Notes under the pieces: generated by a model
Databases searched by the model: none
What the model was told of the DNA's origin: nothing
What the model saw: the letters and a program-made list of their open reading frames with translations, nothing else
Part shown: positions 45,019 to 63,146 of the stretch, in pieces
Layout: the number at the start of each line of letters is the position of its first letter
How positions within the stretch are numbered: position 1 is the first letter of the stretch
Translations under genes and position numbers: made by a program
NCBI GenBank assembly: GCA_048941015.1
Contig: JBHLNZ010000009.1
Location: 16,169-80,168, forward strand
DNA from: Promethearchaeota archaeon
Lineage (GTDB): Archaea; Asgardarchaeota; Lokiarchaeia; Sigyniarchaeales; SOKP01
Direction: 5' to 3'
DNA: 64,000 nucleotides

Positions 45019-45582
45019 ATGCAACTTGATCATATTGATAAGCAAATTATAAATGCTCTGTTTTTAAACGGACGTGAGAGTCTCACTAATCTTGAAAAAA
45101 TTATTTTCAAATCTAAGCAAGAAACAATGAGTCATACGGGAATCTCTAAAAGAATTTCTAGATTAGAAGAAGCAGACATTCTTAAGGTTCAAGCAAATGC
45201 AAATATAAAAAGATTAGGTTATAAAGCTTTATTTATTCTGATGGAAATGCGGAATTATGAAGAAGAAAGAAAGATAATTGAAGCTTATTCAGAATGTCCA
45301 AGAGTATTTTTGTTAGCCCATGTTACAGGACAGTATAATTTAATATTAGGGATAATGGGGCAGAGCATTGAAGTTTTACATAGATTTCTTAATTATTGTG
45401 GCCCTACCAATAAGGAAGGTATATTACATTCAGCAACTATATTTGTCTCAGAATTAATTACTCCTACATTTTTGCCATTCAATATATTTAGTTCAGAAAG
45501 TAAAGAACAAAAGTGTGGTAACATGTGTGCAGAATGTACCGCATATTTAGATGGTAAATGCAGGGGTTGTGGAGAATTTTAA
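45019..45582 (+). CDS. Lrp/AsnC regulator with Cys-rich tail
   Basis: HTH, ECPRV, TGQYNL, CGNMCAEC..CRGC. Confidence 0.88.
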   Translation: MQLDHIDKQIINALFLNGRESLTNLEKIIFKSKQETMSHTGISKRISRLEEADILKVQANANIKRLGYKALFILMEMRNYEEERKIIEAYSECPRVFLLAHVTGQYNLILGIMGQSIEVLHRFLNYCGPTNKEGILHSATIFVSELITPTFLPFNIFSSESKEQKCGNMCAECTAYLDGKCRGCGEF

Positions 45583-45671
45583 TTGCTCATATTAACATAA
45601 TTTAATTTTTATTATTGAAGTTCGTTAATAGTTCTTTAACTTTTTATATAAAGACGATCTTTAATTTTTAC

Positions 45672-45750
45672 TGTTTCAAATTGAAACAATTAAGGAGAAA
45701 ATGTTTGAAATTAAAACTAAAGTGAGTATAATTGTTTAATGTAATCAAAC
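45672..45750. promoter_or_regulatory. Triplet of 15-bp GTTT-N7-AAAC boxes (45673, 45703, partial 45734)
   Basis: First box is the palindrome TGTTTCAA-A-TTGAAACA; spacing 30 and 31 bp; TATA-like sequence follows. Confidence 0.65.
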
Positions 45751-45801
45751 TAGCAAAATATAAGGATATTTTTTTTAAATCATCGATTCTAATCATATAT
45801 T

Positions 45802-46365
45802 ATGGAATTAGACAAAATTGATAAACAAATTCTAAATGCATTATTCATTGATGGAAGAGAGAGCTTAAGTAACTTAAGTAACCAAGTCGAAAAATCAGAT
45901 CAACAAAAAATGAGTCATACAGGAATAGCAAAAAGAATTTCTAAATTAGAAGATTCTAGAATTTTAAAGGTTCAAGGAAATATTAGTATTTCAGAGCTTA
46001 ATTATTATACGGCTTTTATACTTATGGAAATGAAAAATTATGACGAAATTCAAACCATAATAGATCAATACTCCGAATGCCCAAGAGTTTTCTTATTAGC
46101 TCATGTGACTGGACAATATAACTTAATTTTTGGAATAATAGGACAGAATGTTGATGTTTTACGCAGATTTATAAATTATTGTGGTCCTACTAATAAAAAA
46201 GGTATTTTGCATTCAGCGATTATCTTTGCTTCTGACATTATAAACCCAAAATTTCTACCTATAGACCTTTTTAGTGGCGTTAGTAAAGAGCATAAATGTG
46301 GTAATATCTGTAAGGGTTGTGAAGCATTTCTCAAAGGCGATTGCTGTGGGTGCGGTAATTTTTAA
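45802..46365 (+). CDS. Lrp/AsnC regulator with Cys-rich tail (tandem paralog)
   Basis: Same length as and collinear with 45019-45582; CGNICKGC..CCGC. Confidence 0.88.
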   Translation: MELDKIDKQILNALFIDGRESLSNLSNQVEKSDQQKMSHTGIAKRISKLEDSRILKVQGNISISELNYYTAFILMEMKNYDEIQTIIDQYSECPRVFLLAHVTGQYNLIFGIIGQNVDVLRRFINYCGPTNKKGILHSAIIFASDIINPKFLPIDLFSGVSKEHKCGNICKGCEAFLKGDCCGCGNF

Positions 46366-46672
46366 TAATTCCAAAATCAATTTAAGTCTTTTAAATTTTT
46401 CAATAGTTTTGCATTTTACTGTATTAGTTTGAACTCTTGTCTAAAATTAATTTGTGCTATAGAATTGAATTTCAAAAACTCCTCGAAATTCTTTTAAAAA
46501 TGAAGTAAAAGAATAAAAAATTGTGAAGATTATTTACTAATAGAATATAATTATAGAATATTTTTATCCATTTAATTCCATTTTTAATTCTTTTTCTATC
46601 GTAAATAATTTATAAACCAAATTTATAAATAGAATTTTTGGACTAGCCTGTCTAAAGTAAAGAAATTTTTTT

Positions 46673-46748
46673 GTTTCATATTTAAACTAATCAGAAGAAT
46701 TCATTAGATCTTTAAACCCATATTAATTAAATTGTTTAAATTATCCAG
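46673..46748. promoter_or_regulatory. GTTT-N7-AAAC box triplet (46673 full; 46703 and 46734 half sites)
   Basis: GTTTCATATTTAAAC; same 30/31-bp spacing; TTATAAAA follows. Confidence 0.55.
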
Positions 46749-46915
46749 ATCTAGTAAAACTTATAAAAGAAGTAATAAGTTTTAAAAATTAAGGTGATAT
46801 TTTAAAAAGAATTGAAAAAATAGAATTTTCATAAACTTTTTAAGAAATATTTAGAACAAATCTAAAAATATAAAATAGCAAAAAACCAAAATTAAACAAA
46901 TATTTACACGAAAAA

Positions 46916-47566
46916 GTGAGTAATTTAATGAAAAAAAGAATAATCCCTCTTTTAATAATCAGTAGCTTTCTTTTAATAACAATTGGAGGAGTTGTAGCAT
47001 ATCCTTCTTCTATTGAGACTTTTGCTGGTGGATCACATACAGGATGTCATGCTGGTGTTAGTCCTACTACTGAGAGTGTTGGTGCGACAGTAACCTGTAA
47101 TTCTGTAGAAGGTACTTCTTTAAATGCAGGTCAACAGTTCACTATAAATGTTGTAATTGAAAATTTTACTGAAGCGTTAACTATAGATAGAAATAGTATG
47201 GTGAGTGTAGCAGTTCCCCGTACTCGAGGCGATAATGCAGCATTTGGCACCCTTTTAGAAGATCCTATAAGAGAACATGATGTTACATTAGATGTTAATG
47301 GAGATTCAAATGTTTCGGTAACTTTTAACTTAATAGCTCCATTCACTAACGGAGATTATGATATCGTCGTTGATGTTTTAGCTGCCGCAAATCATACTGA
47401 TGGAAGTGCTTTAGGTATAATTTATGCAACAGATACTTTAAGCATAACAGTCAGCGGTGGCCTGATTCCTGGTTTTGAAGTCTATACCTTGATTGGAGTG
47501 CTTATAATAACAACTGCATCAATATTAATGATTGTACGTCGTAGGAAACTTAAAGCTTCAAAATAA
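46916..47566 (+). CDS. Exported HxxCH-motif protein (Reeler-like beta domain) with IPGF sorting tail
   Basis: Signal peptide ..VVA|YPS, SHTGCH, TFNLIAP, IPGF-TM-RRRK. Confidence 0.75.
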   Translation: MSNLMKKRIIPLLIISSFLLITIGGVVAYPSSIETFAGGSHTGCHAGVSPTTESVGATVTCNSVEGTSLNAGQQFTINVVIENFTEALTIDRNSMVSVAVPRTRGDNAAFGTLLEDPIREHDVTLDVNGDSNVSVTFNLIAPFTNGDYDIVVDVLAAANHTDGSALGIIYATDTLSITVSGGLIPGFEVYTLIGVLIITTASILMIVRRRKLKASK

Positions 47567-47776
47567 AATCTAATTCTTTATTATTTTTTTTTTTATTTAT
47601 AGACCTATATTAACGATTAATCAATAAGAATAAATTTTAAAAACAAATTAAAATAACTCCCAATTAAAAGGAATTAAAGATAATTTTTAATCAATATTAA
47701 TACAACTAATATTTACCATAATTATACAAATATAAACACATATATTACAAAAGATTATATTCATCTGTGTGATAAA

Positions 47777-48487
47777 ATGAAGGAAATCTCTAACTGGTTC
47801 AAAAGAGACTATTTACTTGTCATCTCAATTTCATTACTAATTATAAACTTATTTTTAATTTTTTTATTAACATTCTTTAGTCGTATCGTTTACATGATTT
47901 TTTTTTATCATGTTTCGTCGGCTTGGCTTTCTTACTTTTCATTTGCTATAAGTTTAATTTGTCATATTTTATACTTAAAACAAAAAAAATTGTCTTGGAA
48001 TCGTCTTGGTAAAAATAGTATTATTGTAGGAGAATTTTTTTGTGCCGTAACTCTTATTACAGGGTCGTTATGGTATAATGCAACCTCAGGAGGTTATAGT
48101 AATATTTATTGGCAATGGAGCGATGCAAGACAGACCATGACTTTAGTCTTATTCCTTTCTTATCTATCTTATTTAATTTTTGGGAATATGATTGAAGAAA
48201 GAGAAAAAAAAGCTAAATTAACTTCTATATTGGGGGTCATACTTTTTCCCACAGTTCCTCTAAGTTATTTTTCTGCAATTATATTCGCAAGTCTACATCC
48301 GTTAATAAATCCTAATCCAAGTCAATCAGGATATATTTATTGGGACTTCATGAAGCTATTTATATTATTTCTTAATTTAATAGCAATATCTCTATTTTTC
48401 ATTCATGTTGTAAAAGATTTAGTAGAATTAGATAAAACTAAAGAAAGATTAAATGAAATTATACAAAAAAATTTGAGAGAAGAATAA
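47777..48487 (+). CDS. ccmC: Cytochrome c maturation heme transfer protein CcmC
   Basis: FYHVSSAW, TGSLW...YWQWSDAR (WWD-like), SLHP, 6 TM. Confidence 0.88.
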   Translation: MKEISNWFKRDYLLVISISLLIINLFLIFLLTFFSRIVYMIFFYHVSSAWLSYFSFAISLICHILYLKQKKLSWNRLGKNSIIVGEFFCAVTLITGSLWYNATSGGYSNIYWQWSDARQTMTLVLFLSYLSYLIFGNMIEEREKKAKLTSILGVILFPTVPLSYFSAIIFASLHPLINPNPSQSGYIYWDFMKLFILFLNLIAISLFFIHVVKDLVELDKTKERLNEIIQKNLREE

Positions 48488-48492
48488 AAAAA

Positions 48493-48636
48493 ATGTCACA
48501 GCTTCTATTAGACTCCATTACAATGACAATTAGTTACGTTTTATTTTGGTTCGTTATTATTATTTTAATTTTATATCCTAAATTGCGTCTAAAAAAAATA
48601 CGAAAAAGAATTAAGAATTTGGAGAAAAATAAATAA
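48493..48636 (+). CDS. ccmD: CcmD-like single-TM peptide (not in ORF track)
   Basis: Hand translation MSQLLLDSITMTISYVLFWFVIIILILYPKLRLKKIRKRIKNLEKNK*; YxxxW TM and basic tail; sits between ccmC and ccmE. Confidence 0.7.
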   Translation: MSQLLLDSITMTISYVLFWFVIIILILYPKLRLKKIRKRIKNLEKNK

Positions 48637-48651
48637 GAGTAAGAGATTAAA

Positions 48652-48990
48652 TTGAAAAAAACGAAAATCATAGCTATTTTAGCAGTTATATTATCTTTAA
48701 GTCTTATTATTATATTAATATTTATCAATATACGCCCATATCTTAAAGTTTCCCAAGTTGTTTCGAATCCAACAAAATATGATAATCGTGAAATTCAAGT
48801 AATAGGGATTGTACAAGATTTTTCAGGAGGCAATTTTAATTTAACAGAAAATACCGATAGAATACTAATTGATGTATCTGAGATAACAATACCAAGTGAA
48901 TTGGAAAATGGACTTCAAATAGTTGTAATGGGGCGATTTAATGCAACATTGATTTTAGAAGCAATACAAATTCTTACTCAATGTAGTTAA
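48652..48990 (+). CDS. ccmE: Heme chaperone CcmE, Cys type, C-terminally short
   Basis: N-terminal TM, YLKVSQV, IQVIGIV, IVVMG...EAIQILTQCS*. Confidence 0.85.
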   Translation: MKKTKIIAILAVILSLSLIIILIFINIRPYLKVSQVVSNPTKYDNREIQVIGIVQDFSGGNFNLTENTDRILIDVSEITIPSELENGLQIVVMGRFNATLILEAIQILTQCS

Positions 48991-48997
48991 CGCTTAT

Positions 48998-49723
48998 TTA
49001 ATCAAAAAGCAGATTTTGAGAGACTAAACTCAAAATTGAAGCCATAAGAATGATATGTGCAACTAAAAATAAAATTTCATAAAGATAATCAAATATTAAT
49101 GCTAATTCTAACAATTTGATATTAATTGATATTATAGGAGTTGTTATTGGCAATATTATTGGAAATAATATAATTGGCAAAATAAATGATTTTTTTTTAG
49201 CATACATAGAAAGTGCTGATACTATTGTACCGCAGATTGATAGATCTATTGTAGGTAAAATAATACCTAAAACCAAATAATTCATTAATTGAGAAAATTT
49301 TAAATCAGGTATTAAAGGATTAGAAATAAAGAAACTAAAAAGAAGAAGTATAATTTCAATAAAACTTAATATTATAAAGCAGAAAAATATCTTGCTAAAT
49401 ATTAATATGTTAGCAGATATAGGTGAAGAAATTAAACCCCCTAAAGTCCCAGAGTCTTTTTCTTTAATAAATAATTTTGCCATTACAAATATTAGAGTAA
49501 AAAAAATTATTAACCATAACTCAATTATAAAGATCTCAAGCGGCATACTCTGATATTGTGTACTGAAGCTATATACAGAAGAAAAAATAAATATAGAAAT
49601 AATATCAAAAAGAAAGATTGAAACTATATCATTTATTTGGCGAACTTCTGATTTTAAATCCTTTCTTAATATCAAAAAAAATAACTTAATACTTTGTTTC
49701 AATTTCAGTTTCATTTGATTCAC
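48998..49723 (-). CDS. ccmB: Heme exporter permease CcmB
   Basis: RKDLKSEVR, FIKEKDSGTL, LPIILFPIILP. Confidence 0.88.
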   Translation of the reverse strand: MNQMKLKLKQSIKLFFLILRKDLKSEVRQINDIVSIFLFDIISIFIFSSVYSFSTQYQSMPLEIFIIELWLIIFFTLIFVMAKLFIKEKDSGTLGGLISSPISANILIFSKIFFCFIILSFIEIILLLFSFFISNPLIPDLKFSQLMNYLVLGIILPTIDLSICGTIVSALSMYAKKKSFILPIILFPIILPITTPIISINIKLLELALIFDYLYEILFLVAHIILMASILSLVSQNLLFD

Positions 49724-49735
49724 TAAAATATTACC

Positions 49736-50458
49736 TTAAAAATATGATTCTATTTGAATTTCGCTATAATTTTCTCTTGTAAGGGATTTGTTAATCTTTC
49801 CCTTCTTTAAAATAATTAAATCATCACAAATTTTTGATAATAAATCGATTTTATGGGTAGTAAGAATTATAGTCACATTTTTTTCATTTTTCAAATTTTG
49901 AAGAAAGTTTGTCGATAATTCAGTTGCTTTATAGTCTAAACCTGAAAAAGGCTCATCTAAAAATAAAATGGATGGATCATGAATTAGAACTCTAATTAAT
50001 TCAACTTTTTGTTTCATTCCATGAGATAAGTTTCGAATGGGTTCATCTAGCCAGTCCTGGATTTCAAATAAAGTAGTATACTTCTCTATTTTATTTTTTA
50101 TATCATTTTTATTAAAATTATAATGTAGATTATCATAAAATCTTAAATTTTCACTGATCGTCAATTCCTCATAAAGAAAGGATTCATCAGTAGTAATCCC
50201 AGTTTTTTTTTTAATATAATATGGATCTTCCTCATAATTATATCCTTGGATGTTAACTTTTCCAGAAGAAGGTTTTAATAACCCTGATAAAATCTTAATT
50301 AGTGTTGTCTTTCCCGCTCCATTCGCTCCCGCTATCCCGAAAATTGTATTTTCTTTTACTTTAAATGAAATATTTTTTAACGCAAAAAAGTATCCAAATT
50401 GTTTTGAAACATTTTTACAATTTATGATTTCTTTATTTTTGATTGCCAAATTCTTCAA
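49736..50458 (-). CDS. ccmA: ABC ATPase CcmA
   Basis: GANGAGKTT, LSHGMKQ, LDEPF, TTH; directly upstream of ccmB. Confidence 0.88.
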   Translation of the reverse strand: MKNLAIKNKEIINCKNVSKQFGYFFALKNISFKVKENTIFGIAGANGAGKTTLIKILSGLLKPSSGKVNIQGYNYEEDPYYIKKKTGITTDESFLYEELTISENLRFYDNLHYNFNKNDIKNKIEKYTTLFEIQDWLDEPIRNLSHGMKQKVELIRVLIHDPSILFLDEPFSGLDYKATELSTNFLQNLKNEKNVTIILTTHKIDLLSKICDDLIILKKGKINKSLTRENYSEIQIESYF

Positions 50459-50554
50459 CTTATACTTATAAGATTTAATTTTAGAGTTTCTTATAAAATG
50501 AACTGGTTTAATTATTTTAAATTTAAATTAATAAATAAAAAAAATATTAAAAGT

Positions 50555-53245
50555 TTATTTAATAAATCTCTTAGTTCTAGATTTCATCCATAGAATAATA
50601 GATATAATCGGAATAGCTAAAGTAGTTGAAATTATTAGAGTTAAATCAAATCCCGATACTAATTCTTGATTAGAATTAATATTTGGTTGAGATACAATTT
50701 TTTTAACTGTCGCATCTTTAAATCCTAAGTGTGCTAATGTATCATTTGCATAAAACCTAATTAAAATATCCCCATTAGGCATGTTATCCCATAAATCTTG
50801 TTGTAACGTTTCGGTTAAACCTTGGATAGTTATATTATTAGACCAGTGAGTTCCATTATATAATGAATACCATATACTATCTAAGTTTGGTTCTGTTATG
50901 GAAATAGTAAAAATTGGAGCGTTCGCTCCGCTTTCTATGGGAAATGAAAGTACTGACAAAATGGGAGCACTTATATCTCCAATTATATTAATGAAGTTTG
51001 TAGTATTTGTATTTCCAGCAAAGTCAGTAGCATTTACTTGAACTGAATATGTTCCATCTTCAGTAATCATAAACGTAGTATTCCATATATCACTCCCTTG
51101 ATAATTTAGTTGAATGAATTGAATCTCACTAGGGGTTATTATCGTAGCCCATAATCCATTTGCATTGATGTCCGAGCTTCTATTTATAGCGGTAATTACT
51201 GTTAGACCATTTGATGGATTTGGAGAAACATAATCCAGTATTATATCAGGGGCAGAGATATCACCTGCGATATCAAGTAGATTAGTGGTATTTGTATTTC
51301 CAGCAAAGTCAGTAGCATTTACTTGAACTGAATATGTTCCATCTTCAGTAATCATAAACGTAGTATTCCATATATCACTCCCTTGATAATTTAGTTGAAT
51401 GAATTGAATCTCACTAGGGGTTATTATCGTAGCCCATAATCCATTTGCATTGATGTCCGAGCTTCTATTTATAGCGGTAATTACTGTTAGACCATTTGAT
51501 GGATTTGGAGAAACATTATCCAGCATTATATCAGGAGCATCAATATCGCCATAAAATGAATCTATTGTATATCCAATATTAGAATAAAGATCTGTCCCAT
51601 TTATTTTTACAATATGAATTCCTGTATCAAGAACTGTATAATTAGTTATCCATGTTCTTGGGCCACCTGTAGGGTACATCGTCCTATAAATAACTGTGTT
51701 ATTTGGAGCTGTTATATTTAACAATGGATTTCCAAATAACGGTTCATTTGATATAACAGTAATATATGTAAATCCATTTGATGGATTTGGATTTATTGTA
51801 CTTACAGTAAGAATTGGGGGGAAAAGATCGTCCGATACAACTTCAAAATACCTTTTGCTTACATTTACATTTCCAGCAGCATCCGTAATGTTAATTTCTA
51901 TCCAATAAAATCCTAGAGGGATAAAACTATTATTTTCAAAACTAAACAATCCGCTAGTTGATCCACTTGGATCAATTTGTGGTTTATTTTGAGCAACACC
52001 CCATCGAGAATCGTTTATAAAAATATTTAAAATATTACTACCTGTTCCATATGCCCATCCATTTATTGCAATAACGTTTCCTCCAATACTCTCTCCATCG
52101 TTTCCAGGATTTGTAATATTAACAAAAGGATTCACTATATCACCTGTAATGGTAGTTAATGTTGAGATATTGACATTTCCCGCTAAATCAGTAGCATTTA
52201 TTTGAACTGAGTATGTTCCATCTTCTGTAATAGTAAATGTGTTATTCCATTCATCTCCTCCTTGATAAAGTAAATCAAGAAAAACTTTTTTAGCACTTGG
52301 GGTTGTTATAGTTGCTCTTATTCCATCATTATTGATATCTGAACTGTAATTAATAGCACTTATAGTAGTTACTCCATTTGAAGGATCTGGGAGTACACTT
52401 TGTAGGTTAATCGATGGTGCTGTATTGTCAATAATCACATTTACAGATTCAGTATTATTCACGTTTGAAGGACTTGCACTATCATTTGCTTTTACAGTTA
52501 TGCTATAAAAACCATCAAATGCAGATAAAGTGTCCCATACGGCATCATAATATGAATCGACGTTTAAAGCCATTAGAATTGTTTGATTGTATGAACTTGC
52601 ATTAGTAATTTCTGCCCAGACTGAATCAATACCACTACCTCCATAGTCAACTACACTTGCGTTTATTATTATATTGCCTCTTCCATAGTTATTATTTAGT
52701 GGGTTTAAAATCGAAACTTCAGGCGGTAAGGTATCTGATGGAGCTGATTGAACTGTAATTGCATAATTACTTGATGCCCAGATGGTTTCGCTCCCACTTT
52801 TTCTATAAATCGCATCAGCGGTTAAGATGTATAATTGTTCTGAAACAGGAGCTGTAACTTGAAAATTAAATATCGCTGAATCTCCAGATGTAATATCTGC
52901 AGATACCATAGTAGTATTAAAACTAAATTGTTTGTTGTTTCCTCTGCCTGGATTTCCACTGGGGAATCCAAGTTTAAGCTCCTTTCCGTCCGCTTCATAG
53001 AAACTTTTTACTTGAACAGAAAGCATAAAAACCTCTCCAGGATCTACAGTATCTCCAGAATTCGATACAAATGATATATATCCAGTACTACTTTGAGTCG
53101 ATGAAGCAAAGTGGCACGAAGATCCATGAGAAGTTCCGTTAAAATCATCAAAATAGCTTGTATAAGCAACAGTAAATCCCGTCAATACAATTAGAAAGAA
53201 GATTGTAATTATTAGAGATAGAATCTTTCTTTTTCTATTTTTCGT
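50555..53245 (-). CDS. Large surface protein: HxxxCH domain on a stalk of Ig-like repeats with C-terminal anchor (track start 53185; signal peptide extends to about 53245)
   Basis: In-frame upstream KNRKRKILSLIITIFFLIVL, ..TVA|YTS, SHGSSCH, FQVTAP, repeated D..AP...DG.Y...ATD.AGN units, VSGF-TM-basic tail. Confidence 0.8.
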   Translation of the reverse strand, partial: TKNRKRKILSLIITIFFLIVLTGFTVAYTSYFDDFNGTSHGSSCHFASSTQSSTGYISFVSNSGDTVDPGEVFMLSVQVKSFYEADGKELKLGFPSGNPGRGNNKQFSFNTTMVSADITSGDSAIFNFQVTAPVSEQLYILTADAIYRKSGSETIWASSNYAITVQSAPSDTLPPEVSILNPLNNNYGRGNIIINASVVDYGGSGIDSVWAEITNASSYNQTILMALNVDSYYDAVWDTLSAFDGFYSITVKANDSASPSNVNNTESVNVIIDNTAPSINLQSVLPDPSNGVTTISAINYSSDINNDGIRATITTPSAKKVFLDLLYQGGDEWNNTFTITEDGTYSVQINATDLAGNVNISTLTTITGDIVNPFVNITNPGNDGESIGGNVIAINGWAYGTGSNILNIFINDSRWGVAQNKPQIDPSGSTSGLFSFENNSFIPLGFYWIEINITDAAGNVNVSKRYFEVVSDDLFPPILTVSTINPNPSNGFTYITVISNEPLFGNPLLNITAPNNTVIYRTMYPTGGPRTWITNYTVLDTGIHIVKINGTDLYSNIGYTIDSFYGDIDAPDIMLDNVSPNPSNGLTVITAINRSSDINANGLWATIITPSEIQFIQLNYQGSDIWNTTFMITEDGTYSVQVNATDFAGNTNTTNLLDIAGDISAPDIILDYVSPNPSNGLTVITAINRSSDINANGLWATIITPSEIQFIQLNYQGSDIWNTTFMITEDGTYSVQVNATDFAGNTNTTNFINIIGDISAPILSVLSFPIESGANAPIFTISITEPNLDSIWYSLYNGTHWSNNITIQGLTETLQQDLWDNMPNGDILIRFYANDTLAHLGFKDATVKKIVSQPNINSNQELVSGFDLTLIISTTLAIPIISIILWMKSRTKRFIK
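51003..51516. repeat. Intragenic tandem duplication, 285-bp period, 229 bp identical (51003-51231 = 51288-51516)
   Basis: Direct base-by-base comparison; corresponds to one 95-aa Ig-like unit. Confidence 0.92.
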
Positions 53246-53362
53246 TGAAAATCACCTTTAACTTTTTATTATTACGTTAAATTTTTAAACTTAAAATCAA
53301 ATTTTATTAAAATTTAGAATTAATTTAATCAAAAATTTGATATCTTTTAATCTTTTGTTAAT

Positions 53363-53438
53363 CAGAGTAATTTAAACAATCGATTTGCTTTCAGTTTCAA
53401 GTTTAAACATTTCTAAAAAAAAAGTTTAAATTATAAAT
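53363..53438. promoter_or_regulatory. GTTT-N7-AAAC box triplet (half 53363, full 53394, near-full 53424)
   Basis: GTTTCAAGTTTAAAC and GTTTAAATTATAAAT; 31/30-bp spacing; upstream of the stalk protein gene. Confidence 0.6.
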
Positions 53439-53504
53439 TAAGAATTTGATAAATTGGCCTGATAAAAAGGATAGTTTAAAAAATAAGACTCAATAGTTAT
53501 AAGT

Positions 53505-55214
53505 TTAAGTAACATTCTTTTTTAAAAAAAATAGTATAAAAATAGAGGGGATAATCCCAACTAGTAGAAAAATAAATCCAGAAATATAAAAAATATCTAA
53601 AATCATACCATAATTAATATCAATTAAAGTTCCTATCAAGATAAATGATATTCCTCCATGAATTATTGTCTTTGAATTTATTCTAAAAAATCTCTGGATT
53701 CCCATTTTAAGATTATTTCTCTTTATTAGTTTAAAGAGTGAAGCAAATAGAGCATAATAATATATAGACATAAAAGGATTAATCCAAATGTCAATCAAAA
53801 CTACTAATACTAATGATACAATCAATTGAATTAAAAATGTAATAACCATTGTAAGAGTTATCCATTTCACTTTAAAAATATCTTGCAAGGAACAAAAAAT
53901 AAGTGATACTGCTAATATAATAGCTAAAATAAAGGTGCTAATTATAAAAAAGTTCGGACCAACCAAAATTGTATTAATATTTATGAAATTTGAGATGAGA
54001 TTCGTTAACGGTGGAATTATAAGCCCAAAAGTGCACACAAATGATAAACAAAATAAAATAAGATAACTTAAGTAATCAAAAAAGTTCCTAATTTTATGAT
54101 ATTCTTCTAAAAGATAATTTAAAACTTCATAAATTACATACATAGCTAATATCAATAAACTAATACCAATTACTACAACCCATAAAGCTAATCCTGCGTC
54201 CCCAGTAAATGCATGAAGAGAGCTTAATCCTCCTCCTCTAGTTATAAGAGTAGCAAACATTATTGAAAAGAAAATTAAGATTGCATTTACTTTTAAAATT
54301 TTGGCATTTTTCACTTTGAATATATTGGAATGAAAATAAGCAGTACAAAAAAACCAAGGAATGAGAGAGACTACTTCAACCGGATCCCAACCCCAATACC
54401 TACCCCAACTTGAAGTAATTTTTGCCCAATAAGCCCCTAAACTAATGCTTAAGGTAATAACTAACCATCCAAATTTTAAACTAAAATTATAAAATGATTT
54501 CTGATAAGGATTTTTTAAAGATAATTTTGGCTTTATAGTTTCTACAATATTTATAGTAAATGGGATTAAAAAGATGGCATATGCAATAAAAGTAAAGAAG
54601 GGATGCCAAATCATAAAAGGAGATATTAAGATTGGATTCAGACCACGACCATCTGGATATATTATAGGTTCTTCAACTTTAAAAGGATTTAATGAAAACA
54701 AAATTACTAAGAAACTTATCGAGATTAGCATGGAAATTACGCTTGACCAGATAAAAACAGAGTCTTCTTTATCTTGGTTTTTAATCCGATAAAAAAAAAT
54801 AACTATTGAATTAAATACCATCCAAGTCATTATTGAACCTGCTTCTCCTGCCCATATTGCTACAATTTTATAAATAAGTGATAAATTTGATTCACTATAA
54901 CTCCATACATATACAAGATTATAATAGTCATTCACAAAACCATATTCTAAAAGTAAAAATATTGAAATTGATAGAGCCATGTTGAGTGATGCTAAATAAA
55001 AATAATTCTCTCTTTTTAAAATTAAATAGATTAAATCAATAATCACAGTTATAATATTCAAAAAAATTAATATATTTGCGAGATTGGATATTATTTTAAT
55101 TTTTAAATCTAAATTTACTAGATTCAATAAATTAGGAATAATTACAGCGATTGTTATAATTATTATTAAATCAGATATTATAACTGTTTTTAAAGAATTT
55201 TTATTAAATCTCAT
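53505..55214 (-). CDS. ccmF: Cytochrome c synthetase CcmF (compact form)
   Basis: WAGEAGS, GLNPIL..IWHP, GAYWA..WGRYWGWDPVE, AYFH, SLHAF, IIHGG. Confidence 0.93.
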   Translation of the reverse strand: MRFNKNSLKTVIISDLIIIITIAVIIPNLLNLVNLDLKIKIISNLANILIFLNIITVIIDLIYLILKRENYFYLASLNMALSISIFLLLEYGFVNDYYNLVYVWSYSESNLSLIYKIVAIWAGEAGSIMTWMVFNSIVIFFYRIKNQDKEDSVFIWSSVISMLISISFLVILFSLNPFKVEEPIIYPDGRGLNPILISPFMIWHPFFTFIAYAIFLIPFTINIVETIKPKLSLKNPYQKSFYNFSLKFGWLVITLSISLGAYWAKITSSWGRYWGWDPVEVVSLIPWFFCTAYFHSNIFKVKNAKILKVNAILIFFSIMFATLITRGGGLSSLHAFTGDAGLALWVVVIGISLLILAMYVIYEVLNYLLEEYHKIRNFFDYLSYLILFCLSFVCTFGLIIPPLTNLISNFININTILVGPNFFIISTFILAIILAVSLIFCSLQDIFKVKWITLTMVITFLIQLIVSLVLVVLIDIWINPFMSIYYYALFASLFKLIKRNNLKMGIQRFFRINSKTIIHGGISFILIGTLIDINYGMILDIFYISGFIFLLVGIIPSIFILFFLKKNVT

Positions 55215-55375
55215 TAAAAAATCTAAATTTCAAAAATTAAAAAATATTTTTAAAAAATTATTGGAAATAATATTTAATAAGAGAAGAATAAAAGTAATTA
55301 GGTGCCATTTTTACATTAAAATTTTAAATTCATTAATAATTATTAAATGCAAATTTTATTAATTTTGACAAATGA

Positions 55376-55390
55376 GTTTATAATTAAAAC
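55376..55390. promoter_or_regulatory. GTTT-N7-AAAC box
   Basis: GTTTATAATTAAAAC between divergent ccmF and the gene at 55409. Confidence 0.45.
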
Positions 55391-55408
55391 TATTCAACCC
55401 TTTCAATA

Positions 55409-56275
55409 ATGTTAAATAAAAAAGTCATTCTAATAATTTCTACTTTTGTAGGCGTCATATTTGTCTCTATTCTTTTAAATGCAAATGCTTACCCTAGCTA
55501 TACTCAACCTCATGAAGATTGTCATACAGTTCCAGGAGGTTATTCAATTGGAACTAATATAAGTACATCAAATTCTATCAATGCTTCAGCTGTTATAACT
55601 TTTAATATTACAGCTACTGGTTCAAGCTTGTTTATTCAAGCACCTTCAGATGCTAAAGAAAATAATCAATTTACCATTTTACCCACCACTACTAGAATAT
55701 TAGATAATTCTGGTAATGATTTAAATCCAAATCTAAATGCAATGACAGTTACTTTTAATATAACAGCCCCATCCGAAGATGGATATTATACTATTCTCAT
55801 TTTAGCTGGAGATAATTCTGTCTCTGGTAGTCCACCTCCTTTCGATTACCTAGAGATCGCGTTTAGTATCGGGGGTGTTCTTCCACCGGGCCCAAGAATA
55901 GAAATATTTAATCACTTTGAAATCTATATAGGATTAACGGCCTTATTACTACTATCTATAGGAACAGTTTTAGTATTGATAAATGAAAATAAATTTGTAA
56001 AAATACACGGTATTTTTGCTGGATCTTCATGGATTTTAACACTTATTAATGTTATATCGTTGGTGATTTTTAATCCGTCAATTTGGAGCTCTTTCTCTTT
56101 TGGAATACACTGGTCTCATATCATCTTAGGAGGTGTAGGGTTGCTTACAGGCTTGTTCAGTATGCTTTTTGGAATCGCAGCAGAACGAAAATATGCAAAA
56201 TTAACTGGATATATTACTTTAATTTGTTGGTGGGCTGCTTTCTTTTCAGGTTTTTTAATGGTTCCATTATTTTAA
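55409..56275 (+). CDS. Exported HxxCH domain fused to a 4-TM cytochrome b561-like domain
   Basis: ..ANA|YPS, PHEDCH, FNITAP; TM histidines NHF, KIHG and IHWSHIILG. Confidence 0.72.
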   Translation: MLNKKVILIISTFVGVIFVSILLNANAYPSYTQPHEDCHTVPGGYSIGTNISTSNSINASAVITFNITATGSSLFIQAPSDAKENNQFTILPTTTRILDNSGNDLNPNLNAMTVTFNITAPSEDGYYTILILAGDNSVSGSPPPFDYLEIAFSIGGVLPPGPRIEIFNHFEIYIGLTALLLLSIGTVLVLINENKFVKIHGIFAGSSWILTLINVISLVIFNPSIWSSFSFGIHWSHIILGGVGLLTGLFSMLFGIAAERKYAKLTGYITLICWWAAFFSGFLMVPLF

Positions 56276-56282
56276 AAATTGG

Positions 56283-57800
56283 GTGAAAACTAAAATGAAT
56301 AATTCTAATGCTAAAGAATTAAATACTGAATCTAACAAAGTAGATTCACAAGATATAAAGGAAATAAAAGATAAACGAAATTTTGAAGAGGTTGTGAAAG
56401 AATTTATCTCTCCCTATCACGTTAGTTCCAATCCATATGAACTTGAATCTGCATCCGCCGATCTCACATCACTCCCTTCATACCATTATAAATTTAAAAA
56501 AAATTATCTTGCTAACTTATTAATCCGCCCCGCAGATACAAATAGCCTTTCTATGTTAATAAAAAAATGTAAAGAACGAAAAATCCCGGTAACAATAAGA
56601 GCTGCTGGTACTTCATGCTTCTCCTCAGCCACTCCATCAAAAGGTGGAGTAATCATAGATACGCGCAGATTAAATAAAATATTTAATATTGATAAAGAAA
56701 ATATGACAGCAAAAGTAGGAGTTGGCATTTCTTGGTTAAATTTAATTGAAAAACTTTCTGATTATGGTCTTGCGCCCAAATGCTATCCTACAAGCTTTAA
56801 AACATCTTGTGTTGGTGGTTTTATAGCCACTCCAGGAACTGCTGGTATAGGTGTATTAAAAAATGGATCAATGAAAGATTCGATTCTCAATTTAAAGCTA
56901 GTCCTCCCTGATGGAGAAATAACGAACATTTCGAAAGATTCTAAAGGAGAATTATCCCTCGAAGACATTGTTGGAACTTATGGAATATACGGTGCTATAT
57001 CTGAGGTTGATTTATCTATTACAACGCTAAAAACTTCTTTGGAGATAATTGGTTATGGTTTTAACTCTAACCATGAAGCTATAGAATTTTATCGAAAATT
57101 AAAAAATTCTCTTCCCAATAAACCATTCTTTATATCAATTTCAGAACGAAAATTTGAAACCTATTCACATATTAATTTTCCTGATCAAGATTGGCTAGTT
57201 TGGGCGGTTTTTTATGATGATCCAAAAACAACATCCCAAAATGTATCTACATCAGAAAAATTTGCTTTAGAATTAAACGGAAAAACTGTCGATAAATTAT
57301 ATTTAAAAGAAAAATGGCGTGATATCAGTGATGCTGAAATAGCTATTGGAAGATCAAGTAGAAATCTAATCTTTCAAGAATATTGGATTTCTGATGAGAG
57401 ACTTGAGATATTTATTGAAAAATATCTTAAGAAAAGTCAAAAATATAAATTTCCAACTGCATTATATGCAATTTCGGGGATTCCGGGTTGGACTAGAGTC
57501 AAAGTCTTTGGTTTATCTGATATCGTTAAAACTATTGAATTTTTCACAGTTAAGGCGTTTTTGCATGATCTTTCAGTACAAGCATTCGCACAAGGGGATA
57601 GAGTCTATACCATAGGAATTGTAAATACATTTTATTTGCTTAAATATAGACCAGAATTAGTATCTAAAAGCAAAATATTAAAAAAACAACTAGATCCAGA
57701 GGATTTATTTAATTCTTATCGTATAGTTAAATCTAGGTTAAAATTCTGGAGGATATCGTTACTATTTAACACAGCTAAATTATTATATAAAATTTTTTGA
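56283..57800 (+). CDS. FAD-binding oxidoreductase (VAO/GlcD-like)
   Basis: IPVTIRAAGTS, CVGGFIAT, LVLPDGE, GTYGIYGAI, LDPEDLFN. Confidence 0.85.
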   Translation: MKTKMNNSNAKELNTESNKVDSQDIKEIKDKRNFEEVVKEFISPYHVSSNPYELESASADLTSLPSYHYKFKKNYLANLLIRPADTNSLSMLIKKCKERKIPVTIRAAGTSCFSSATPSKGGVIIDTRRLNKIFNIDKENMTAKVGVGISWLNLIEKLSDYGLAPKCYPTSFKTSCVGGFIATPGTAGIGVLKNGSMKDSILNLKLVLPDGEITNISKDSKGELSLEDIVGTYGIYGAISEVDLSITTLKTSLEIIGYGFNSNHEAIEFYRKLKNSLPNKPFFISISERKFETYSHINFPDQDWLVWAVFYDDPKTTSQNVSTSEKFALELNGKTVDKLYLKEKWRDISDAEIAIGRSSRNLIFQEYWISDERLEIFIEKYLKKSQKYKFPTALYAISGIPGWTRVKVFGLSDIVKTIEFFTVKAFLHDLSVQAFAQGDRVYTIGIVNTFYLLKYRPELVSKSKILKKQLDPEDLFNSYRIVKSRLKFWRISLLFNTAKLLYKIF

Positions 57801-57934
57801 TAAAATGTTCGAAAGGTGATTAGCATAATTTTTATCAACAAAAATTCTATTCAAATAAATTATAACAATTACATTTAATTTTTATTAATTATATTTTTAA
57901 TTTGGGACAATTTAAAACTAAGAGAAAGATTTAA

Positions 57935-59299
57935 ATGAGTGAAAGTAAAGAAGAACAAGATTTAAGAGATGTAGTTACAACAGGTCCTCCTGTTGCAGGT
58001 TTAGTTTCTCCCTCAAAAGAAAATTTAATAGAACCTAAAAGTAAAAAAAAAGAGAAATACTCCTATGAACGTTGCACACATTGTGGTTATTGCCGACATG
58101 TATGTAAGGTTTATAATACTTCATGGTCGGAAACTGATTATGCTGGTGGGCGAAATAGGATCATTAAAGCACTTGATAGTCATGATATTAAATTTGACAA
58201 TGAAAAAATAATACCTTCTGTATTTCGGTGTATGCTTTGCGGTAACTGTAGAGTGGTTTGTCCTGTAGGAATAGATACTTTAGAAGTTTTTCAAAATTTT
58301 CGTAAAGAAGTTGTAAAAAAAGGAGCAATACCTGCCAAGTTAAAAGTTCTAAAAAATTCAATTATCGAGAATAATAATCCCTTTTTAGAAAAACACATAG
58401 ATAGATTTAATTGGTGTAATGCTTGTGAAGAAGGAAAAGAAGCATACGAGCGAACAAAACGAGATCTTGAATCAATAAAGGCAGAAGTTGATCTAAAAGT
58501 TCCTAAACGTATACCTGGTAAAGTTGGTTATTTTGTTGGATGCACTTCTTCATACAGAAATAAAGAGTTAGTAACTGCTACTAGCCAAGTTTTAGCAAAA
58601 CTTGGAGTTAAATTTGTACTTTTTCCTGAGGAACGATGCTGTGGGTCAGTATTATTTAGAACCGGGTTAGAAGATGAGGCTATGGAATTAGTAAAGCATA
58701 ATTATAAAACAATTCTAGAGAGTGGTGTGTCTGAAGTTGTATTTTCTTGTTCAGGATGCTTTTCCACGTTTAATCTCGAATATACTAAGTATGCAGGACA
58801 TAAACTTGAATTTGATCTTTATCATTTAACACAATATGTATTAAAGACTGTTAAGGAAAAAAATTTAAAGATCCGATATACACAACGAACAAAAGAAGAT
58901 CCTTTACTTATTACTTATCACGATCCTTGCCATCTGGGAAGATACTGTGGAGTTTATGAAGAACCAAGAGAACTATTAAATATGATTGAAGGTATCAAAT
59001 TATTTGAGATGAAGCATAACAGAGATATGTCATGGTGTTGTGGTGCCGGGGGTGGAGTAAAAGCCTTATACGGTGAGATTGCAGGTGAGATAGGCAGAGA
59101 TAGATTGATTGAAACACGTACTTGTATGGTAAGAATACGCGAAGACCGTTTAAAAGAAGCATTAGAAACTAACGCTGAAGTTCTTGTTAGTTCTTGTGTT
59201 TTTTGTAAAAATAATTTATTTGAAGTTGCGACTGAAGACAACTCACCTATAAAAGTTATGGATATCTCACAACTTCTTAACGATTGTGAATTCTATTAA
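57935..59299 (+). CDS. HdrD/GlcF-like Fe-S oxidoreductase (two 4Fe-4S motifs and two CCG domains)
   Basis: CTHCGYCRHVC, CMLCGNCRVVCP, YFVGC, CCG, YHDPCHLGR, CCGAGGG. Confidence 0.92.
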   Translation: MSESKEEQDLRDVVTTGPPVAGLVSPSKENLIEPKSKKKEKYSYERCTHCGYCRHVCKVYNTSWSETDYAGGRNRIIKALDSHDIKFDNEKIIPSVFRCMLCGNCRVVCPVGIDTLEVFQNFRKEVVKKGAIPAKLKVLKNSIIENNNPFLEKHIDRFNWCNACEEGKEAYERTKRDLESIKAEVDLKVPKRIPGKVGYFVGCTSSYRNKELVTATSQVLAKLGVKFVLFPEERCCGSVLFRTGLEDEAMELVKHNYKTILESGVSEVVFSCSGCFSTFNLEYTKYAGHKLEFDLYHLTQYVLKTVKEKNLKIRYTQRTKEDPLLITYHDPCHLGRYCGVYEEPRELLNMIEGIKLFEMKHNRDMSWCCGAGGGVKALYGEIAGEIGRDRLIETRTCMVRIREDRLKEALETNAEVLVSSCVFCKNNLFEVATEDNSPIKVMDISQLLNDCEFY

Positions 59300-59307
59300 A
59301 AAGTAAA

Positions 59308-61362
59308 TTAAATCCCAATTAATTTGGGAAGAACTTTCATCTTATTATTATTTAATAATAACTTTTTTAAAGATGAGAGATTTTCAATAGATTTAGGCAA
59401 ATATATTAATTCATTACTATTTAACCATAATTCTTCAAGAGAGTTTAAAAAACAAATTGAGTCTGGAAGAGCTTTAAGCTTATTTTCATCTAAATTCAAT
59501 ATTTTTAGCTTTTGAAGTGATCCTATTGAATGGGGAAGTTTGGTTAATCTATTGTTATTTAACCTTAAAATTTTTAAAGATATTAAATTTCCAATTAAAT
59601 TTGGTAAGAATGATATAAAATTCCAAGTTAAATCTAAAGTTTCGAGAGAAGAAAGAAGCGTTATTGCATCAGGGATTTCTTTTAATTTGTTGTTCATTAA
59701 ATAAATATGTCTAATTGACTTTAAAGAACCAATAGAAATGGGTAATGATAATAATTTATTCCAACCTAATCTTAAAATTTCTAATGATTTAAGGGTACCA
59801 AGTGACTCTGATATAGTGGTTAATTGATTTTCTTCTAAATTTAACGATTTTAATGAAGTTAGTAAGTTTAAAGTAGAAGGAAGTCTAGTTAATAAATTTT
59901 TATTAAGATCCAGTGTTTCAAGGGACCTAAGTAAACCAATAGATTCAGGTAAAACACCTAATTTGTTTGAACTTAAAACTAAATCTTTTAAGTGTTCTAT
60001 ATAACCAATCGAATCTGGAATTTTATTCAATAGATTTCCCTTTAAACTTAAAAATTCTAAAGAAGAAAGATATCCTAATGAGTTAGGTATTTTAGATATC
60101 TTATTATCATTTAAACTCAAATGCTTTAATCTATAAAAAGCTCCTATTGAAAAAGGTAATTTATTCAGGCGATTCTTGTTTAAATTTAAAATCTTTAAAG
60201 AAGTTAAAGATCCTATGTTTTTAGGTAAAGATTCTATATTATTTCCTTCTAAGTTAAGGATCTCAAGATATTTAAATGAACATAGATAGTCTGGCAAGAT
60301 ATAAATTTTACAATTTTTCAAAATTAAAGTACGTATTGAACTAAAGTATTGAAATACTTCTGGTATAGAAACTAAATCCCAATTGTTAAGTTCAATATGA
60401 GAAATCTCTCCAAACTCAACTTTATAATCGATCGGTATATTTTTCTTTTTTAAAAACAAAATACTTAGGTAATTTCTTAAGATATTTGCTAACTTAGAAA
60501 TAGAAAGATTATCTAATGATTTACAAGTAGTTAGTAATCTATTGATTGAATTATCGAATTTTTCATCTTTTAATTTATTTAATTGGGTTATTATTGAATC
60601 TTTGGCAATCTCATTATTAAGATATTCCATTGCAGATATTAACGCTATTGAAAATTTAAACGATAATTCACATTTGAGAGTCCATTCTAATGGAAAGAAT
60701 CTAATATTCCTCAAATGTTTCAAATTTTTTACTCCAAAAATATCCGTATAATCTTGAAGATATTCCCGAACTTTCCAATAAGTTATCTTAACATTAACTT
60801 TTGAAAAATCTAGTTCGATTACTAAACCATCTTTCAATTGGTATTCAAGATCTTTAATTTTCTTTTTTAAAGATAAGATTGTTATATAATTAATTAAAAT
60901 CTCAGTTAAATTTTGAATAGGATAATTAAAACAGTAATTATCTAAACTTTTCTTGAATTTATCTAATTCCATTTTTTTGATTTCTTCCATCAGTGTTGAA
61001 TTCACTCGTTCATCTGTTAAAGTTCTTAATGAATTTATTAAGATTAAAAGACAATTATATGAGGTTTCATGTTGCAATGCCCATAAAAAAGGAGTAATTG
61101 CTTTATCAAGAAATTTCTTTTTTATAACATTAGCAGCAGCATATCTTAAATTTTCACTAGGATCAGAAATTAGAATACTTTCAAGTAAAGGATAAAATTT
61201 CTCATCTTTTATATTAATTTTATCTAAAGTTTCTATACATTCTTGTATAATAATATCGTCATCAATTTGTTCAATCAAAAGAACTAATAAATCTAAAGCG
61301 TCTGATTTATTTAACTTCTGACTTAGAAAATCATTATAAATACTTTTTGGAGATATTACCAT
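59308..61362 (-). CDS. Leucine-rich repeat protein with N-terminal HEAT-like region
   Basis: Many 23-aa L.L..N.L..LP.SIG.L..L repeats. Confidence 0.93.
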   Translation of the reverse strand: MVISPKSIYNDFLSQKLNKSDALDLLVLLIEQIDDDIIIQECIETLDKINIKDEKFYPLLESILISDPSENLRYAAANVIKKKFLDKAITPFLWALQHETSYNCLLILINSLRTLTDERVNSTLMEEIKKMELDKFKKSLDNYCFNYPIQNLTEILINYITILSLKKKIKDLEYQLKDGLVIELDFSKVNVKITYWKVREYLQDYTDIFGVKNLKHLRNIRFFPLEWTLKCELSFKFSIALISAMEYLNNEIAKDSIITQLNKLKDEKFDNSINRLLTTCKSLDNLSISKLANILRNYLSILFLKKKNIPIDYKVEFGEISHIELNNWDLVSIPEVFQYFSSIRTLILKNCKIYILPDYLCSFKYLEILNLEGNNIESLPKNIGSLTSLKILNLNKNRLNKLPFSIGAFYRLKHLSLNDNKISKIPNSLGYLSSLEFLSLKGNLLNKIPDSIGYIEHLKDLVLSSNKLGVLPESIGLLRSLETLDLNKNLLTRLPSTLNLLTSLKSLNLEENQLTTISESLGTLKSLEILRLGWNKLLSLPISIGSLKSIRHIYLMNNKLKEIPDAITLLSSLETLDLTWNFISFLPNLIGNLISLKILRLNNNRLTKLPHSIGSLQKLKILNLDENKLKALPDSICFLNSLEELWLNSNELIYLPKSIENLSSLKKLLLNNNKMKVLPKLIGI

Positions 61363-61434
61363 CTTAAAACTCAGATTTATAAAAATTTTTAATATATAAT
61401 GAAGTAATAAGAAAAATTAATTTTTAGTTTAGTT

Positions 61435-61659
61435 TTACTGCATTTCAACGCTTAACAAATTTGCGTAAATTTCGTTACCCTTTTTATCATTAATCGAAAA
61501 TTTTAATTGAGGACTACCTTTTAGAAGTAAATCAAAGTAGAATCCTAATTTTTCTTTTGATTTTACATTAAAATTTGGTATTATCTTTAGAATATCAGAT
61601 GGGTTTTCAAATTCTTCAACTTTAGCTTCTGCTACTTCTAGATCAAGCATATATTTCAC
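61435..61659 (-). CDS. Small hypothetical protein
   Basis: AAGGA upstream, plausible composition, TATA and box triplet upstream. Confidence 0.55.
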   Translation of the reverse strand: MKYMLDLEVAEAKVEEFENPSDILKIIPNFNVKSKEKLGFYFDLLLKGSPQLKFSINDKKGNEIYANLLSVEMQ

Positions 61660-61737
61660 ATCCTTATTTTTTAATTTCTATTAATTTAATTAACCTAAAA
61701 ATAAAATAGAAAGACATAAATATAAATCTTTCCCCTA

Positions 61738-61814
61738 CTGGTTAATTTAAACAATTGAATCAGTTTTAGTTTCAATATAATACTAAAAACACTTTTTTTG
61801 TTACAATTTAGAAC
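61738..61814. promoter_or_regulatory. Degenerate GTTT-N7-AAAC triplet (61738, 61769, 61800)
   Basis: GTTTCAATATAATAC and GTTACAATTTAGAAC; 31/31-bp spacing; flanks resemble 53363-53408. Confidence 0.45.
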
Positions 61815-61989
61815 ATAAATTTGGAAAATATGATCGTAATCAAAAATATTTTATCCAATTCTTGATCGAATCCCAACATAAATTCATTTTTTGTGATTGA
61901 TTCCAAATATTTTTATAAAAATACTGAATAAATTAGGCAATATAACAATTAAAAATATAATTCAAAAATAAACTGAAAAAGTAAAGAAT

Positions 61990-63096: not shown

Positions 63097-63146
63097 TTAT
63101 TTCTACCTCTCTATAACAATTTTAATTAAATTATCCTCGTTAAAAA

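Follow-up and report, generated by a model that had tools for sequence, protein, structure and literature searches.

Three consecutive genes on a 64-kb stretch of the genome of a Lokiarchaeia-type Promethearchaeota archaeon (contig JBHLNZ010000009.1; the whole stretch is hereafter called the window, with a GC content of about 29%) encode a membrane protein with an exported heme-type domain, a flavoprotein and an iron-sulfur protein which, on balance, probably form one membrane-bound complex passing electrons across the membrane. Positions are those of the whole window and genes are named by their listed start coordinate. The membrane subunit 55409 (55409-56275, + strand; 288 aa) consists of a signal peptide, a c-type-like domain with the motif PHEDCH and a domain of four transmembrane helices (4-TM domain). 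It is followed by the cytoplasmic FAD_binding_4 flavoprotein 56283 (56283-57800, + strand; 505 aa) and by 57935 (57935-59299, + strand; 454 aa), an HdrD/GlcF/TfrB-type Fe-S protein with two [4Fe-4S] clusters and two complete CCG (CXnCCGXmCXXC) domains. The module is real and conserved, and its gene content, domain homologies, conservation and linkage are direct observations. The co-directional arrangement of the three genes, with a gap of 7 nt between 55409 and the listed GTG start of 56283, had been pointed out in an earlier note on this DNA and is borne out.

Conservation of the module in Asgard archaea

More than 180 close homologues of 55409 were retrieved, every one from Asgard metagenome-assembled genomes. 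A profile of 32 homologues (A2), run on 301 sampled genomes of the phylum, matched 60 genomes, and the matching families were only three, namely f1, the lineage of the window (18 of 68 genomes), f2 (4 of 7) and f9, a distant, Thor-type Asgard family (37 of 76). Thirty-six loci were fetched and the window proteins were mapped onto each of them. Wherever a full-length orthologue of 55409 is present (13 of 13 loci), it is followed consecutively, co-directionally and with short gaps by the FAD gene and the CCG gene, and the ccm genes for cytochrome c maturation as well as both paralogous heme proteins adjoin the triplet wherever the contig extends far enough. In six further loci, the 4-TM domain occurs alone, behind extra N-terminal helices, still next to the FAD and CCG genes and with no ccm gene nearby, and in f9 FAD and CCG genes come directly after a 4-TM gene in 16 loci. 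The linkage of the oxidoreductase genes to the HxxCH and ccm genes in relatives, on which the earlier note had staked its proposal beforehand, is thus found by a wide margin, and a chance adjacency of the dehydrogenase genes, considered as an explanation, is ruled out by synteny.

The distribution of the maturation genes separates two layers of the module. All 14 genomes with the cytochrome-4TM fusion carry CcmC/CcmF (PF01578); with the CcmF of the window as query, no match was obtained in five genomes having only the 4-TM form, and PF01578 had no match in G071, G141 and G261. As the 4-TM-only form keeps the FAD and CCG genes in genomes without detected ccm genes, the core is the 4-TM/FAD/CCG set, and the c-type ectodomain with the surface paralogues is an add-on, present only together with ccm.

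The family f9 (GC content 44-49%) carries a 20-kb island in which a fusion of cytochrome, Ig-like and 4-TM domains is followed by a FAD-CCG pair. Also encoded on the island are a DUF2231 membrane protein together with a short anchored monoheme protein, two more CCG-FAD pairs, and a 4-TM-only protein behind which FAD-CCG and ccmABC lie in that order. The gene for a multiheme NrfA/c554-like cytochrome adjoins the island, and there are four paralogous FAD/CCG pairs in f9. A gene for the menaquinone prenyltransferase MenA is located in or beside the island in five of five genomes, in four of them above cut-off. One such Thor-type island with its flanks (L054; G140:C1:117000-136900) additionally shows an amine-oxidase-like flavoprotein and, just beyond, CcmF and a MenA homologue.

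The four-helix membrane domain

The AlphaFold2 model of 55409 (pLDDT 81.5) places strands at residues 46-154 and four transmembrane helices at residues 169-282. Of the four histidines, H200 and H237 occur in all 49 sequences compared, which come from three clades, H169 in 48 and H234 in 47; G201, N214, G241, G248 and W274 are invariant as well. The topology of the domain follows from the export of the N-terminus; in the model, H169 on helix 1 and H234 and H237 on helix 3 would lie near the outer face, with H200 on helix 2 approximately two turns in from the cytoplasmic face. The arrangement of the outer histidine pair, on helices 1 and 3, recalls that of b561-type bundles. This set of conserved histidines would fit one bis-histidine heme on the outside and a second, incompletely ligated heme on the inside, the sixth ligand of which could be absent or be provided by a second protomer or by a partner protein; to bridge the membrane, the domain would have to hold two centres. 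As a working model derived from the sequence, the 4-TM domain may therefore be regarded as a small transmembrane heme bundle.

The designation 'b561-like', which had been given to this membrane domain, is backed by sub-threshold matches only. The b561 family (PF03188) was matched by 6 of the 32 homologues with a best E value of 0.011, below the threshold of significance (language-model score 0.76), and the domain has four helices with no conserved histidine on the fourth. Membership of cytochrome b561, which needs six transmembrane helices and four conserved histidines on helices 2-5, is rejected: the histidines are restricted to helices 1-3 and there is no significant Pfam or PDB match. DUF420 (PF04238; CtaM/YozB), a 4-TM family proposed to be the ancestor of the heme A synthase CtaA (PMC8239418), was weakly matched by 15 of the 32 homologues (best E 0.0076), the language-model score of 0.80 being a lead only, and one JGI record is named YozB/DUF420. 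A profile search of the PDB with the transmembrane alignment gave nothing, and fold searches with the whole 55409 model found only generic Ig sandwiches and four-helix bundles. The 4-TM family of 55409 is unannotated, restricted to Asgard archaea, and new.

The exported domain and its surface paralogues

The exported part of 55409 comprises the signal peptide, the PHEDCH motif (H-x2-C-H, the cysteine being Cys38) and an Ig-like beta-sandwich at about residues 40-155. A local iterated profile search recovered the same domain in 46916 (E 1e-30) and at the N-terminus of 50555 (E 3.7e-24), two paralogues that single-protein and narrow-profile searches of the own genome had missed, and also joins the three window domains to domains of f9 (E 1e-24 to 1e-53). 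46916 (46916-47566, + strand; 216 aa, SHTGCH) is a short surface-anchored protein with a Loki-CTERM sorting signal composed of PGFE, a transmembrane helix and a basic tail (NF033507, 20.9 bits with a cut-off of 19.9). 50555 (50555-53251, - strand; 876 aa) is a long surface protein in which a signal peptide and the heme-type domain (SHGSSCH) precede Ig-like units starting at residues 151, 253, 349, 452, 547, 642 and 737 and a C-terminal SGFD with a transmembrane anchor. The earlier note had seen the same heme domain at the tip of roughly eight Ig-like units; the domain is indeed present, and the eight beta-sandwich units are seven Ig-like units plus the heme-type domain itself. Its motif, previously given as HxxCH, is actually H-x3-C-H (HGSSCH).

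None of the three window proteins possesses the canonical CxxCH or CxnCH signature of c-type cytochromes (H-x2-C-H, H-x2-C-H and H-x3-C-H, respectively), while export is predicted by signal peptides and the heme-attachment system co-occurs, with ccmABCEF adjacent in the window and ccm genes in the 14 of 14 genomes mentioned above. In an alignment of 34 sequences of the exported domain (A4), the cysteine and histidine of the motif are the sole invariant columns. At the aligned place, the f9 proteins read CxxCH, Cx3CH, Cx4CH or Cx5CH and the f1 proteins H-x2-4-CH with the same variable spacing. In f1, histidine has consistently taken the place of the first thioether cysteine, whichever of the three architectures is considered; at that position, a few paralogues carry neither cysteine nor histidine. 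Two of the latter are tandem cytochrome-4TM fusions (L044; G225:C58) which read LGCH and in which glutamine replaces H234; a FAD/CCG match was not seen within the stretch fetched for this locus. Because the f9 homologues are canonical at the same place, ccm co-occurs throughout and the cysteine and histidine are invariant, the exported domain is best read, as far as its sequence tells, as a cytochrome c domain predicted to bind a single heme.

In the models (pLDDT 81.5 and 87.7), the exported domain adopts an Ig-like sandwich fold and the motif is carried by an N-terminal arm. Fold searches with the N-terminal domain alone returned Ig, macroglobulin and MSP domains only (best Z 8.9); cytochrome f, DOMON and Reeler are absent from the matches listed, which does not exclude them, and a Pfam match to Reeler was not found for the exported domain. 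According to these searches, the modelled domain appears to resemble no solved cytochrome.

With a single heme on seven non-redox Ig units, the stalk of 50555 would be non-conducting, so that its tip heme would not be a wire and could only serve as a tethered carrier, by collision or swinging. The proposal of a cytoplasm-to-surface conduit with heme domains at three heights is accordingly retained in part: a redox module leading from the cytoplasm to the outside is the best reading of the locus, but the three heights make no conduit.

The 50555 gene has two peculiarities. The listed TTG start cuts off the signal peptide, which is encoded in frame upstream (53251-53186, - strand) with no ATG, GTG or TTG; upstream of it, on the same strand, an in-frame TGA (53254-53252) and a Shine-Dalgarno-like GGTGAT (53256-53251) are located. 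The missing start codon points to a non-canonical start (e.g. ACG at 53245 or ATT at 53224) or to a sequencing error. Furthermore, a 285-bp tandem duplication at 51003-51539 (1.9 copies, 98% matches) results in two nearly identical Ig units in the stalk, reflecting either a recent duplication or a collapse or expansion in the assembly.

The flavin and iron-sulfur subunits

FAD_binding_4 is matched by 56283 with an E value of 4.8e-32, which assigns the protein to the VAO/PCMH flavoproteins, within the GlcD/D-lactate dehydrogenase superfamily. Its nearest solved matches, confined to the FAD domain, are glycolate oxidase, LctD and D-lactate dehydrogenase; the C-terminal half is divergent and unrecognised in the window protein, whereas the f9 homologues do match FAD-oxidase_C. 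In 57935, the CCG domain PF02754 is matched twice (E 1.3e-30) next to a 4Fe-4S dicluster domain, and every Fe-S and CCG cysteine is invariant in 18 orthologues, as expected of the HdrD/GlcF type. Its best families, TfrB (176.6 bits, the top NCBIfam match), LdhH, GlpC and GlcF, are all below cut-off, and the closest solved relative is 9ojn (E 3.4e-33). No transmembrane helix was found in either protein. An identity of the pair as GlcDEF glycolate oxidase is rejected, as the scores are 101.7 versus a cut-off of 567.9 bits for GlcD and 91.5 versus 333 bits for GlcF, with no GlcE gene in the locus.

Cytochrome maturation and the supply of heme and quinone

The maturation genes of the locus are, by family matches, ccmC for heme delivery to CcmE (47777-48487, + strand), ccmB (48998-49723, - strand), ccmA for the ABC ATPase (49736-50458, - strand) and, divergent from the 55409 operon, ccmF for the heme lyase (53505-55214, - strand); a CcmE-like heme chaperone is recognised by its sequence (48652-48990, + strand). 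CcmG/H thiol-redox genes were not found in the locus. The CcmE-like protein ends in LTQCS directly before the stop codon, the archaeal cysteine being kept and the tyrosine four residues later missing.

With respect to quinones, MenA (TIGR00751) was found neither in the own genome, at 95% completeness, nor in five near-complete f1 genomes that carry the module, and MqnA/D was likewise not found in the own genome. A MenB-like gene was rejected as a menaquinone gene, as it encodes a BadI/MenB-type crotonase that scores equally as BadI and is part of a cluster with acyl-CoA dehydrogenase and hydroxyacyl-CoA dehydrogenase genes. An MqnE-like radical SAM protein scores below threshold (354 versus 434 bits). 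Since no menaquinone prenyltransferase was found in the lineage, the route is probably independent of quinones, and the f1 version would probably be a reduced, quinone-independent form with the c heme fused directly to the membrane domain.

Proposed route and alternative readings

In the route that we favour, the flavoprotein 56283 would oxidise a small organic substrate in the cytoplasm, probably a 2-hydroxy acid, and pass the electrons to the [4Fe-4S] and noncubane CCG clusters of 57935, which would dock on the cytoplasmic face of the four-helix domain of 55409. Heme b ligated by histidines, the inner heme by H200 and the outer one by H169 together with H234 or H237, would carry the electrons through the membrane to the fused outward domain, a putative monoheme c-type domain with histidine in place of the first thioether cysteine, matured by the neighbouring CcmABCEF. 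From there, electrons could proceed by collision to the lipid- or transmembrane-anchored paralogues, 46916 near the membrane and 50555 on its seven-Ig stalk, and finally to some outside acceptor. Heme binding, the contacts between the subunits, the direction, the substrate and the acceptor are what we infer within this route. That it amounts to a full, quinone-independent extracellular electron-transfer chain in Loki-type Asgard archaea without heme or quinone synthesis of their own is doubtful; in this wider version, 50555 would be a tethered shuttle on an Ig stalk of roughly 25-30 nm, the electrons would be dumped onto partner cells or minerals and heme would be scavenged from those same partners.

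Several observations weigh against the favoured route. There is no conserved histidine or methionine on helix 4 in the 49 sequences, leaving the inner heme site with H200 as its single conserved ligand; 55409 itself matches no Pfam family at E <= 5, and its homologues have no significant match to b561, DUF420 or a solved cytochrome. The flavoprotein is far below the GlcD equivalog cut-off and its C-terminal domain has no match. A 134-nt AT-rich stretch separates 56283 from the CCG gene 57935, which makes their co-transcription uncertain. The motif in the window is HxxCH and not CxxCH, and single-cysteine motifs are poor substrates of System I of Escherichia coli (PMC3268396); the Asgard Ccm system must therefore differ. 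The occurrence of MenA on the f9 island means that the ancestral module may have been coupled to quinone. Finally, porphobilinogen synthase (ALAD, PF00490) was detected neither in the own genome nor in any of 71 f1 and 41 f9 genomes, so that heme would have to be scavenged. This absence is no argument against heme binding, as f9 also lacks a detectable ALAD and nevertheless carries canonical multiheme cytochromes; the archaea of both families are apparently heme auxotrophs that scavenge heme, yet mature cytochromes c.

The same complex could operate inward, electrons from a partner, a mineral or reduced humics at the surface reducing a cytoplasmic disulfide or 2-oxo acid via the CCG protein or the flavoprotein. 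HdrD/HdrB-type CCG proteins are established catalytic disulfide reductases fed by membrane cytochromes b, TfrB, the top match of 57935, is a thiol:fumarate reductase subunit, and the direction is not fixed by the sequence. However, FAD_binding_4 enzymes of the GlcD/D-lactate dehydrogenase clade are mostly dehydrogenases or oxidases and a fermentative syntrophic Asgard archaeon needs electron sinks over sources, and inward flow is considered rather improbable. A similarly low probability is assigned to a 4-TM domain that acts as an anchor, or as a cytochrome b feeding a lipid-soluble carrier, with the c-type ectodomain and the surface cytochromes as a side branch or a separate system. Such a role would agree with the occurrence of the 4-TM/FAD/CCG core without a heme c domain or ccm and with the MenA genes in or beside all five f9 islands; on the other hand, MenA and MqnA/D escaped detection in the own genome and MenA in the five near-complete f1 genomes as well, and all 14 ccm-positive f1 genomes have the c domain covalently joined to helix 1.

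Unlike these readings, a third one dispenses with the c heme altogether: the H-x2-C-H domain would be used for metal binding or adhesion, the dehydrogenase encoded by the operon would be of the ordinary membrane-associated kind, and ccm would either be a relic or have other clients. The non-canonical motif, the generic Ig sandwich of the fold searches and the missing ALAD are in line with it, but the motif cysteine and histidine are the only invariant residues, distant homologues read CxxCH at the same place, ccm genes with intact open reading frames accompany the fusion in 14 of 14 genomes, and f9 has canonical multiheme cytochromes without ALAD, all of which make a heme-free domain quite unlikely. 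Even more improbable, to the extent that we give it little credence, is a function in heme handling, with reductant led across the membrane to keep scavenged or CcmE-bound heme ferrous or for reductive uptake of heme or iron. While the 55409 operon is immediately divergent from ccmF, the locus lacks CcmG/H and the organism is apparently a heme auxotroph, 4-TM/FAD/CCG modules are present in genomes in which ccm was not found, and the four paralogous FAD/CCG pairs of f9 fit catabolic diversity.

Relation to known systems

The favoured route, from the cytoplasmic flavoprotein to the outward c-type domain, has close analogues. HdrDE, DsrMK(JOP), Tmc and Hmc of methanogens and sulfate reducers equally combine, in one operon, a cytoplasmic HdrD-type protein with two [4Fe-4S] clusters and two CCG domains and a histidine-bearing membrane heme subunit, and Dsr, Tmc and Hmc share the extracytoplasmic c-type cytochromes. 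In contrast to these systems, the membrane subunit belongs to a four-helix Asgard-restricted family and is no NarI- or HdrE-like di-heme cytochrome b (no Pfam or NCBIfam match), the c domain is fused to the membrane subunit and is a monoheme domain with HxxCH, and the input is a FAD_binding_4 flavoprotein. EtfD of mycobacteria, in which a flavoprotein is wired to the membrane via noncubane clusters to hemes b (PMC13083937), and EMO of Syntrophus, which is of the same kind (10.64898/2026.08.18.745454), display the same order of flavoprotein, noncubane CCG clusters and membrane hemes b. In both of these, a single polypeptide unites the CCG and membrane parts, with ETF as donor and (methyl)menaquinone as acceptor, whereas here the genes are separate, the donor is GlcD-like, MenA was not found and the c heme is predicted to face outward. 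GlcDEF and D-lactate dehydrogenase with a CCG partner have the membrane-associated pair of FAD_binding_4 and GlcF-like Fe-S/CCG proteins in common with the module; however, the scores are far below cut-off, GlcE is missing and the pair has a dedicated membrane subunit.

For the membrane domain, eukaryotic cytochrome b561, the eukaryotic FRRS1-type ferric reductases and the DUF420/CtaA bundles share the idea of a small histidine-ligated heme bundle serving an extracytoplasmic domain, with the outer histidine pair on helices i and i+2, but compared with b561 and FRRS1 there are four helices instead of six, the fourth histidine position is missing and the leads are sub-threshold only. The heme motif, with one thioether cysteine followed by the proximal histidine, resembles that of the single-cysteine cytochromes c of Euglenozoa ((A/F)xxCH) and of cytochrome f. 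Here, histidine and not alanine or phenylalanine takes the place of the first cysteine, and maturation would depend on a System I variant, not on the kinetoplastid system. Cytochrome f, which likewise has a beta-sandwich and a heme motif near the mature N-terminus, starting with Tyr-Pro, was not among the fold matches of the exported domain.

Regulation and neighbouring genes

The regulators, the three genes with heme-type domains, the ccm genes, the FAD gene and the CCG gene lie together at 45.0-59.3 kb; the gene order, strands and coordinates given in the earlier note are confirmed. Two tandem Lrp/AsnC-type paralogues (45019-46365, + strand) with Cys-rich C-terminal tails (CGNxC..C-x7-CxGC) are also found beside the ccm/cytochrome locus in relatives and are candidate regulators of it. 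GTTT-N7-AAAC boxes occur seven times in the window, with 2.3 expected, all of them within 45673-59979; five are situated upstream of genes, including 45802, 46916, 53251 and 55409, and two inside genes. The box at 55376-55390 is located 19 nt upstream of the ATG of 55409, and the boxes are partly conserved in close relatives. Shared by Lrp, heme-protein and dehydrogenase genes, the boxes would be consistent with one regulon. Downstream of the operon (59308-63818), a HEAT and leucine-rich-repeat protein (684 aa) and a four-cluster ferredoxin-like protein are encoded, both syntenic with the operon in most f1 relatives; in the window, a radical SAM gene is placed between the two.

Novelty and implications

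No description of the module was found in the literature searched on Asgard ccm genes, cytochromes, extracellular electron transfer and HdrD/GlcD proteins. The order of flavoprotein, CCG Fe-S protein, membrane hemes and outer c hemes, if the analogy with HdrDE, DsrMKJOP, Tmc/Hmc and EtfD/EMO applies, is already known. New are the Asgard-restricted four-helix membrane family, its fusion to an Ig-fold monoheme domain with histidine for the first cysteine, and a GlcD-like flavoprotein as its partner in lineages in which neither quinone nor heme synthesis was detected. The locus offers for study a putative membrane electron-transfer domain of a new kind, a heme c motif in which histidine naturally replaces cysteine and which a System I variant would handle, and a proposed three-protein complex that lends itself to expression and testing.

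Lokiarchaeia and Thorarchaeia have been portrayed as fermenters or acetogens relying on the transfer of hydrogen or formate and, to our knowledge, CxxCH screens find no cytochromes in them. The module suggests that some of these archaea can carry respiratory-type electrons through the membrane to the cell surface, which would change the metabolic models and the syntrophy of the closest archaeal relatives of eukaryotes. If the full chain were true, direct interspecies electron transfer would join hydrogen and formate syntrophy in models of eukaryogenesis.

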